From IMG/VR virus record IMGVR_UViG_2698536372_000011: a DNA stretch of 4,550 bases. One strand, given 5' to 3'. The stretch comes from a virus. Lineage: Duplodnaviria > Heunggongvirae > Uroviricota > Caudoviricetes. Shown here one piece after another: positions 3,001 through 4,550 of this stretch; the first letter of the stretch is position 1, and every line of letters starts with the position of its first letter. The position numbers are program-made.

Positions 3001-4550
3001 GCTATATCCCAGAAATAAGCCTTGTGAGTAATCATCTCTGTTTTCATGTTTATTGCCATAAATATCATTAAGTATTGGTTGAAACTTCCCTGCATCATCA
3101 TTTGCTAATGATAATGCAAGGCTGTTCGCGATAGCTGAACACGTGGTAAATGACAGAGCAATAAAGACGCCAGCGATGACACTTTTTTTCATATGTTATT
3201 GTCTTCCTTTTTTTTGAATGGTGCGCGTATTTTACATACATGAGTTTGTAATACAAGGTGCGTAATCAATATGATGTTTTATAATTGCGTGAGACAATTG
3301 ATTTATTCGTTTTTTATTGCGGTTTTTATTATCTTTTAATGTAACGGTGTTTTTATTAAGTGTGTTTGCGTGGTGTTTTATGTTTTTTATAATTTTTATT
3401 TTATTAAATTTAAAAGCATTAGTAATGGCTATTCTATATAGCAATATAAGAACTGTTACAAAAAAAGGGGGGGCAATTACAGGTAGTTATGGATGATGAG
3501 TGAAACAGATATTGGAGAACCGGGGAATGAATGATGTCTGAGTCTTATATATCAGAACTCCTTCGCTGTCGCTGGGGGCTCCTGTGCTTATGTCGTTTCC
3601 CCGATTCGGTTTTGAACGATTACCGAATGTTGAAGAATTATGCCAAAATATAGAAAGGATTTACTGCATGAATACCCAATATTTACAGTATGTTCGTGAG
3701 CAACTTATGGCAGCTACTGCTGACTTGAACGGAGCAACGAAAGGCCAGCTCGAAGCCTGGCAGGAGCATGCACAATTTGATACTGGTACATACAAACGAA
3801 AGAAGCCGCGCATTCTGGATGTGGTAACTGGCAAGATGATTACGCTGGATAATACGCCGACTTCCGGTAAGCAGTCGTACGCAAAAGGTTCATCCATTGC
3901 TTTGGTCAGCCCGGTTGAATTCTCAACCTCTTCATGGCGCCGCGCGGTTTTGTCTCTCGATGAACATCAGAAAGCATGGTTGCTTTGGTGTTACAGCGAA
4001 AGCGTTCGATGGGGGCATCAGGTCACCATAACGCAATGGGCATGGAGCGAGTTTAAAGATTTGTTAAGTAACAGAAAAATTGCAGGTAAGACACTGGATC
4101 GCCTGAAGACGTTAATCTGGCTGGCTGCACAGGATGTGAAGAGCGAACTTGCAGGGCGTGAGGCCTATGAATACCAGACACTGGCATCATTGGTGGGAGT
4201 GACAACAAAAAACTGGTCCGAGACATTTACTGAACGCTGGGTTGCAATGAAGCACATTTTTCTACAGCTTGATAGTGATGCTTTATTGCTTGTGACGAGA
4301 ACACGTTCAAAACAAAAGGCAGCATTTTTACAGCAAAATATTGCAAAACTGGATTAAAAGCCATATACTTCATGCAAATTTGGTATGTTGTAAAAAATGT
4401 ATAAACCCGCTGCCGAGTGGGTTTTTTTTATGCCCTGAGTTGTACTTGTACGGTAAACATGCTGGCTGCTATGTAATAGAGTTTTTTTAGCCTGTAACCT
4501 CTTGACGGCATTGAATTGCTTTTGTTATGAGTTGTAAGCCAATGTTATCA

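Follow-up and report, generated by a model that had tools for sequence, protein, structure and literature searches.

The 4,550-nt stretch of DNA analysed here (the window; IMG/VR record IMGVR_UViG_2698536372_000011) belongs to a lambdoid prophage found in Shiga-toxin-producing strains of Escherichia coli (STEC) and matches O26:H11 and related genomes at 100%. Positions 4341-4429 are very probably the late regulatory cassette of this prophage, made up of the late promoter PR', a Q-utilization (qut) and pause site and the terminator tR'. The cassette belongs to the phage 82 type, and its partner is an antiterminator gene of the Q82 family that ends inside it (Table 1). Elements of this kind have been studied thoroughly; the present allele is uncharacterised, leaves the accepted picture unchanged and is only mildly notable, for a missing GCC discriminator and a very compact distance between pause and terminator.

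Table 1. Features of the window cassette and the genes on either side of it, with +1 set at A4376
Feature	Position	Strand	Remarks
Antiterminator gene Q, Q82 family	3668..4357	+	229 aa; Pfam PF06323, E = 1.7e-91
PR' -35 hexamer TTGCAA	4341..4346	+	promoter scan
Spacer, 17 nt	4347..4363	+	
PR' -10 hexamer TATACT	4364..4369	+	promoter scan
Predicted transcription start, A4376 = +1, first A of AAA run	4376..4378	+	7 nt past the -10 hexamer
Predicted short leader RNA made without Q	4376..4431	+	about 53-56 nt; counterpart of lambda 6S RNA; deduced from the predicted start and the terminator
Candidate sigma70-dependent pause element TGGTATGTT	4381..4389	+	TG-n-TAnnnT, extended -10 form
Extended -10 TG	4381-4382 = +6,+7	+	
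-10-like hexamer TATGTT	4384-4389 = +9..+14	+	
Equivalent of the pause 'discriminator', +15-17	4390..4392	+	GTA in the window, GCC in phage 82
Predicted pause site, T, A	4400..4401 = +25/+26	+	from the register with phage 82
Intrinsic terminator tR'	4403..4429	+	9-bp stem 4403-4411/4416-4424, loop GCCG 4412-4415, T8 4422-4429
Beginning of the late transcription unit: first gene past the terminator, for a membrane protein (744 bp, running past the window end)	4542..4550	+	phage 434 and RefSeq annotation

The promoter begins within the Q gene: the last five codons and the stop codon of Q (ATT GCA AAA CTG GAT TAA) run across the -35 hexamer and into the upstream end of the spacer. An earlier note on this DNA had described a near-consensus sigma70 promoter of the form TTGCAA-N17-TATACT. 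Both hexamers and the spacing between them are present as described; however, they agree with consensus at 9/12 positions (4/6 in the -35 and 5/6 in the -10 hexamer), and the term near-consensus is therefore too strong. We set +1 at A4376 because in the phage 82 numbering the discriminator at +15-17 directly adjoins the -10-like hexamer (PMC5001585), and on that numbering initiation is predicted at about this position. A start within a run of A residues would be consistent with the slippage reported for the 82 late promoter in the title of a work cited in PMC5001585.

Shortly after the predicted start the same note had placed an extended -10-like element, and this element (TGGTATGTT) is indeed found at +6..+14. 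Its general form TGNTANNNT (TGnTAnnnT) is by itself not rare in the window, with 15 matches against 11.0 expected, whereas for the combined pattern TTG-N20-TANNNT-N11-TGNTANNNT there is a single match in the window and none in 200 dinucleotide shuffles. In phage 82 the -10-like pause element of PR' is nearer to consensus than that of lambda, has an extended -10 and is followed by a GCC discriminator at +15-17; sigma70 engages this element at an RNA length of 21 nt, and the polymerase pauses at +25/26, where terminal bases are preferred in the order U > C > A > G (PMC5001585). The hexamer, discriminator and pause positions of the window coincide with this published numbering, and a pyrimidine, T4400, occupies +25. 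The suggestion that the spacing is of the phage 82 type rather than that of lambda thus agrees with the hexamer at +9..+14 and the T at +25 (PMC5001585), and pausing of the window allele at +25/+26 is predicted by analogy with phage 82.

The phage 82 accession X92588 ends at the Q stop codon; as a proxy for phage 82 PR' we used loci whose Q is 98-99% identical to that of phage 82, checked against the description in PMC5001585. From +1 these loci read AAATCTGATATTTTGCCAATGTTGTA, which is consistent with the published description, and they align with the window without gaps. Both share the Q family (PF06323), the -35 hexamer TTGCAA, the 17-nt spacer, the AAA start, the extended -10-like element at +6..+14 and the T at +25, and the sequence from -35 to -17 is identical. 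Between -16 and +15 the window carries about eight substitutions, including a -10 hexamer of TATACT rather than TATATT, G rather than A at +8 and a pause hexamer of TATGTT rather than TATTTT, and at +15-17 it reads GTA rather than GCC. Beyond about +16 the sequences are unrelated, and the window lacks the inverted repeat found at +12..+38. The terminator stem ends at +49 in the window and at about +76 in proxy loci such as L103 and L108, giving leaders of approximately 54 and 80 nt respectively.

In order to compare the cassette with its relatives, a search with a Q-protein profile gave 67 genomic and 80 viral loci from Escherichia, Shigella, Citrobacter, Enterobacter, Klebsiella, Kluyvera, Raoultella, Leclercia, Pantoea and others, to which annotated phages were added. 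The strict architecture was found in 141/153 loci with a recognisable Q. Of 109 unique sequences, 108 have 17 nt between -35 and -10, 108 have 11 nt between the -10 hexamer and the TG, and 107 have both spacings. Beyond the search pattern itself, the positions -32..-28 (CAAAA), A-23, A-19/-18, T-10 A-9 T-8, T-6, A+2, T+4 and T+11 are fixed or nearly so, T at +11 being present in 105/107 unique relatives. TTGCAAAA at -35 is nearly invariant among the 107, and their -10 columns read (T/C/G)ATATT. The base at +25 is always a pyrimidine (T in 97/107, C in 10/107). With all the elements located, with this conservation and with late genes downstream, the sequence data support the PR'-qut-tR' architecture that the earlier note had read into the region. 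In both the host genome and phage 434 these late genes lie on the same strand, and they comprise holin, lysozyme and Rz-like (lysis) genes and terminase genes; the phage 434 record (OL657226) annotates further terminators before the holin gene.

A divergent subfamily, represented by phage Flotzy and loci L075-L079, has a Q only 33% identical and a promoter lying about 47 nt past the stop codon of Q, which still has the form TTGCAAAA-...-GATATT-N11-TGATATGTTGCC. Since the promoter is conserved here in non-coding DNA, the constraint of encoding Q does not by itself account for the conserved -35 region. These results bear on a different reading of the window, in which the hairpin terminates only the Q (delayed-early) transcript and the promoter-like and -10-like hexamers have arisen by chance in AT-rich DNA. 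Taken singly, promoter-like and TGnTAnnnT matches are as common as in shuffles, and the phage 434 record has a terminator but no PR'. A chance origin nevertheless appears highly improbable given that the combined pattern was absent from all 200 shuffles, that the spacing is invariant in 107/109 unique sequences from many genera, that the architecture is kept where the region is non-coding and that the elements defined by experiment in phage 82 are matched in exact register.

Sequence similarity falls away downstream of the pause element. Sequence past +15 is highly variable among the relatives, and for most of them (L003-L012, for example) similarity to the window stops at 4390 (= +15), just past the pause element; approximately 880 E. 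coli genomes match only window positions 4330-4390, at 83-87%. As homology to most relatives ends at 4390, Q, promoter and pause element behave as one recombination module. The whole cassette is found at >= 99% identity in 611/5426 complete E. coli genomes, among them O157:H7, O145 and O26; in the O157:H7 strain PV15-279 the copy lies at about 0.896 Mb. Micro-variants in IMG/VR (L086, L087, L089, L092 and L093) have T-runs of 7, 8 or 9; L087 has a -10 hexamer of TATGCT, L092 a pause hexamer of TATATT and L093 a single substitution in the spacer.

The terminator stands out from the rest of the window. A strict definition (stem >= 8 bp, >= 4 GC pairs, T-run >= 7) retrieved only 4403-4429 in the window, and a match was found in 0.35% of 2000 Markov-simulated windows. 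Its GC core comprises 4406-4411/4416-4421, and the terminator marked in the phage 434 record corresponds to 4406-4431 of the window. The predicted leader (4376-4433) folds with -15.3 kcal/mol (z = -2.73). The hairpin plus T8 terminator of the earlier note is therefore present, although the distance of about 30 nt and the transcript of roughly 50 nt given there need refining: the hairpin starts at +28, 14 nt past the pause element and 3 nt past the predicted pause site, and the predicted RNA is about 53-56 nt. Short terminated PR' RNAs have been reported in phages lambda, 21, phi80, 82 and P22 (PMC7547250).

In 99 of the 107 unique relatives an intrinsic terminator lies no further than +135, and the hairpins used comprise at least five sequences unrelated to one another. 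Terminators of unrelated sequence at a kept position imply that terminator function is conserved by position and not by descent. Two forms can be distinguished. In the long form, which includes the phage-82-like loci, an inverted repeat spans approximately +12 to +38 and the terminator stem ends at +64..+80; in the short form (17 unique sequences, the window and Flotzy among them) the stem runs from +28..+30 to +48/49. The 5' arm of the long-form repeat (L003, L004, L005, L007, L041, L046, L153 and others) overlaps the GCC discriminator, and its arms differ by subfamily (TTGCC..GGCAA, TGCCA..TGGCA, GTCG..CGAC and ATGCTGCC..GGCGGCAT). We considered a conserved covarying hairpin between pause and terminator in these long-form relatives and rejected it, as the repeats have no shared register and RNAalifold gave no consensus; such a hairpin is absent from the window.

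A short RNA made constitutively in lysogens may have a function of its own. One proposal, which is compatible with the Q switch, is that the PR'-tR' leader of approximately 54 nt is a trans-acting, Hfq-associated small RNA (sRNA) resembling StxS, here derived from a Q82-type module. StxS, the PR'-tR' leader of Stx phages, is a by-product RNA of this sort whose regulatory role depends on Hfq, and antiterminated phage promoters have been proposed as a rich source of sRNAs (PMC7547250). Like the predicted window leader, StxS is a short RNA from an always-active late promoter, is terminated in lysogeny and lies directly 3' of Q in STEC prophages; it differs in being paired with a 144-aa Q of another family, in that its 74-nt species is processed from a longer precursor and in its demonstrated Hfq binding and targets. 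The strong terminator, long U tail (U8) and A-rich stretch of the predicted RNA would suit such a role, as would the near-identity of the cassette in the 611 E. coli genomes, which include O157:H7, O145 and O26. That identity can however stem from recent prophage spread, and the variability past +15 among relatives is what would be expected if terminator function alone matters. For the leader itself no expression, Hfq-binding or target evidence was found. We regard an sRNA function as unlikely. The only Rfam hit, to the Salmonella sRNA family STnc240 over 4364-4433, was rejected as sub-threshold (28.2 bits, where the gathering score is 55; E = 0.35) and mainly terminator-driven. Nor did we find a link to HnrS (EcOnc10-12), a multicopy sRNA of EHEC prophages, 66 nt long and encoded among the late genes of Sp9/10/12 that is not described as a PR' leader and whose sequence was not compared with the window.

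The window departs from phage 82 at +15-17, where it has no G/C-rich GCC discriminator: G15 is kept, and is followed by T16 and A17. T is present at +16 in 11/107 unique relatives, some of them outside the window's group (GTC in L037, L053, L057, L075 and L077). At +17, 99/107 have C and 7/107 have A, all of the latter belonging to the window's own group. In phage 82, changing GCC to AAA at +15-17 cuts the pause half-life around 5-fold and single changes cut it around 2-fold (PMC5001585). The window might accordingly hold a decayed or weakened Q-utilization site at which sigma-dependent pausing and Q loading are inefficient. The mutational effects in phage 82, the restriction of A17 to the window's group (7/107) and a host prophage carrying IS600 and frameshifted genes all point this way.

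Phage 434 offers an informative comparison here. Its sequence is 100% identical to window positions 3500-4550; the Q82-like gene, the terminator and the downstream genes are annotated in its record, which differs from the present description in having no annotated PR' or pause element. Phage 434, a laboratory phage, propagates with this identical sequence, and the window-type Q is its only intact Q. From the viability of a phage with the identical 1051 bp and no other intact Q, the cassette is presumably functional. Furthermore, G15, the TG, the TA..T bases of the hexamer, T25 and all the spacings are intact, and T16 is not confined to the window's group (11/107 unique sequences in all). Decay of the site hence appears improbable, and we continue to read the cassette as a phage 82-type late switch.

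For the window allele we infer initiation, pausing, termination and Q-dependent readthrough from the elements, register, conservation and genomic context observed here, following a model based on the phage 82 and lambda paradigm (PMC5001585; PMC4914094; PMC9388147). The sigma70 holoenzyme would initiate constitutively at about A4376, and retained sigma70 would rebind the non-template TG-n-TATGTT (+6..+14) when the RNA reaches approximately 21 nt. The complex would then scrunch forward and pause at around +25/26. Without Q, the polymerase would escape and terminate at the hairpin and U8 that start 3 nt further on, releasing an RNA of approximately 53-56 nt. After prophage induction, Q would be made and would bind a DNA site in the promoter region (within -31..+30) and, helped by NusA, board the paused complex to give a terminator-resistant polymerase. 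Such a modified polymerase would read through tR' and later terminators into the lysis, terminase and morphogenesis genes.

Several points weigh against this assignment. The proposed start, pause and readthrough of the window allele rest on its sequence and on the phage 82 paradigm. The promoter hexamers alone, at 9/12, are statistically ordinary and show no enrichment: the window contains 6 sites as good as this one, whereas shuffled sequence gives 9.6 +/- 3.2. With GTA rather than GCC at +15-17, the predicted pause may be weaker, shorter or shifted. Lastly, in this strain the prophage, with IS600 in its replication region, looks defective, and the switch may no longer be used for lytic growth.

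The cassette has some practical interest. PR' and the pause element are unmarked in the phage 434 record and in the RefSeq genomes, though the cassette is present in more than 600 complete E. coli genomes, and Q82-type late promoters can be annotated by a simple rule, namely the conserved pattern TTGCAA-N17-NATANT-N11-TGNTANNNT immediately following a PF06323 gene. The window allele is also a natural variant of a much-used model pause, without the GCC discriminator and with the terminator hairpin 3 nt past the predicted pause site. As such it lends itself to asking how much pausing, and how short a distance, Q82-type antitermination needs. More speculatively, GTA together with the 3-nt gap between pause and terminator would define the minimal distance for Q82-type terminator resistance.

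The 'Q-like gene' of the earlier note can now be assigned to a family. Its product gives the PF06323 match listed in Table 1 and has 89% amino acid identity to phage 82 Q. PF06323 is named the Q82 family in PMC9388147, the Q82 family being one of three unrelated Q families (PMC9388147; PMC7171158), and the depositors of OL657226 labelled the gene 'Q82-like'. A sequence search of the PDB with the window Q matched no relative. The PR'-qut-tR' region of lambda follows the same logic: a constitutive promoter lies just after Q, the polymerase makes a sigma70-dependent, promoter-proximal pause at a -10-like repeat where Q is loaded, and a terminator precedes the late genes. It differs in having a Q of an unrelated family (PF03589), a pause element at +1..+6 with no extended -10, a pause at +16/17 and a terminator at approximately +194.

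The Q82 binding element (QBE) is located somewhere within -31..+30 (PMC4914094), and the window spacer (4347-4363) probably holds at least part of the candidate QBE. A further motif overlaps the PR' -35 hexamer: on the minus strand, 4332-4345 reads TTGC-N6-TTGC, and the phage 434 record annotates a CII binding site here together with the -35 of a promoter paQ. Compatibly with the late switch, this motif could mark a CII-activated antisense promoter that lowers Q during lysogenization. The phage 434 annotation and the presence of the motif in the window are in its favour, but the annotation is a consensus pattern match, and the motif, which falls within codons of Q, is retained in only about 39/107 unique relatives (a hand count from the listed sequences). 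We thus consider a role for paQ doubtful.

The genes of the window run in the order ninF, antirepressor (ant), ybcO, rusA, ninH, a lambda-type Q remnant, lpxR (minus strand), a ylcG-like open reading frame and the intact Q. The remnant at 2018-2107 is a short open reading frame of which 20 codons derive from a lambda-type Q, the sequence afterwards being out of frame; it is termed a truncated antiterminator in both RefSeq and the phage 434 record. It opens with MRLESVAKFHSPKSPMMSDS, which we take to be the N-terminus of a lambda-type Q. The remnant marks the site where a block of lpxR, ylcG, Q82-type Q and PR' replaced the lambda-type Q, and so bounds such a module exchange on its other side.

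The host prophage lies in the E. coli 97-3250 chromosome (L013). IS600 truncates its replication gene P and sieB, and its late region contains a frameshifted DUF6645 (nanS-like esterase) gene (together L013 coordinates 3868-5323 and 12529-14611). The prophage is probably defective. The lpxR gene (2233-3192, minus strand) encodes an LpxR-family lipid A deacylase (PF09982, E = 6.8e-40) and has been inserted as a moron that separates the nin region from Q. AT-rich flanks (2100-2232 and 3193-3530) border it, and its orientation opposes early and late phage transcription. Phage 434 carries the same lpxR insertion, upstream of which the window has ant, ybcO, rusA and ninH whereas phage 434 has ninG and ninI.

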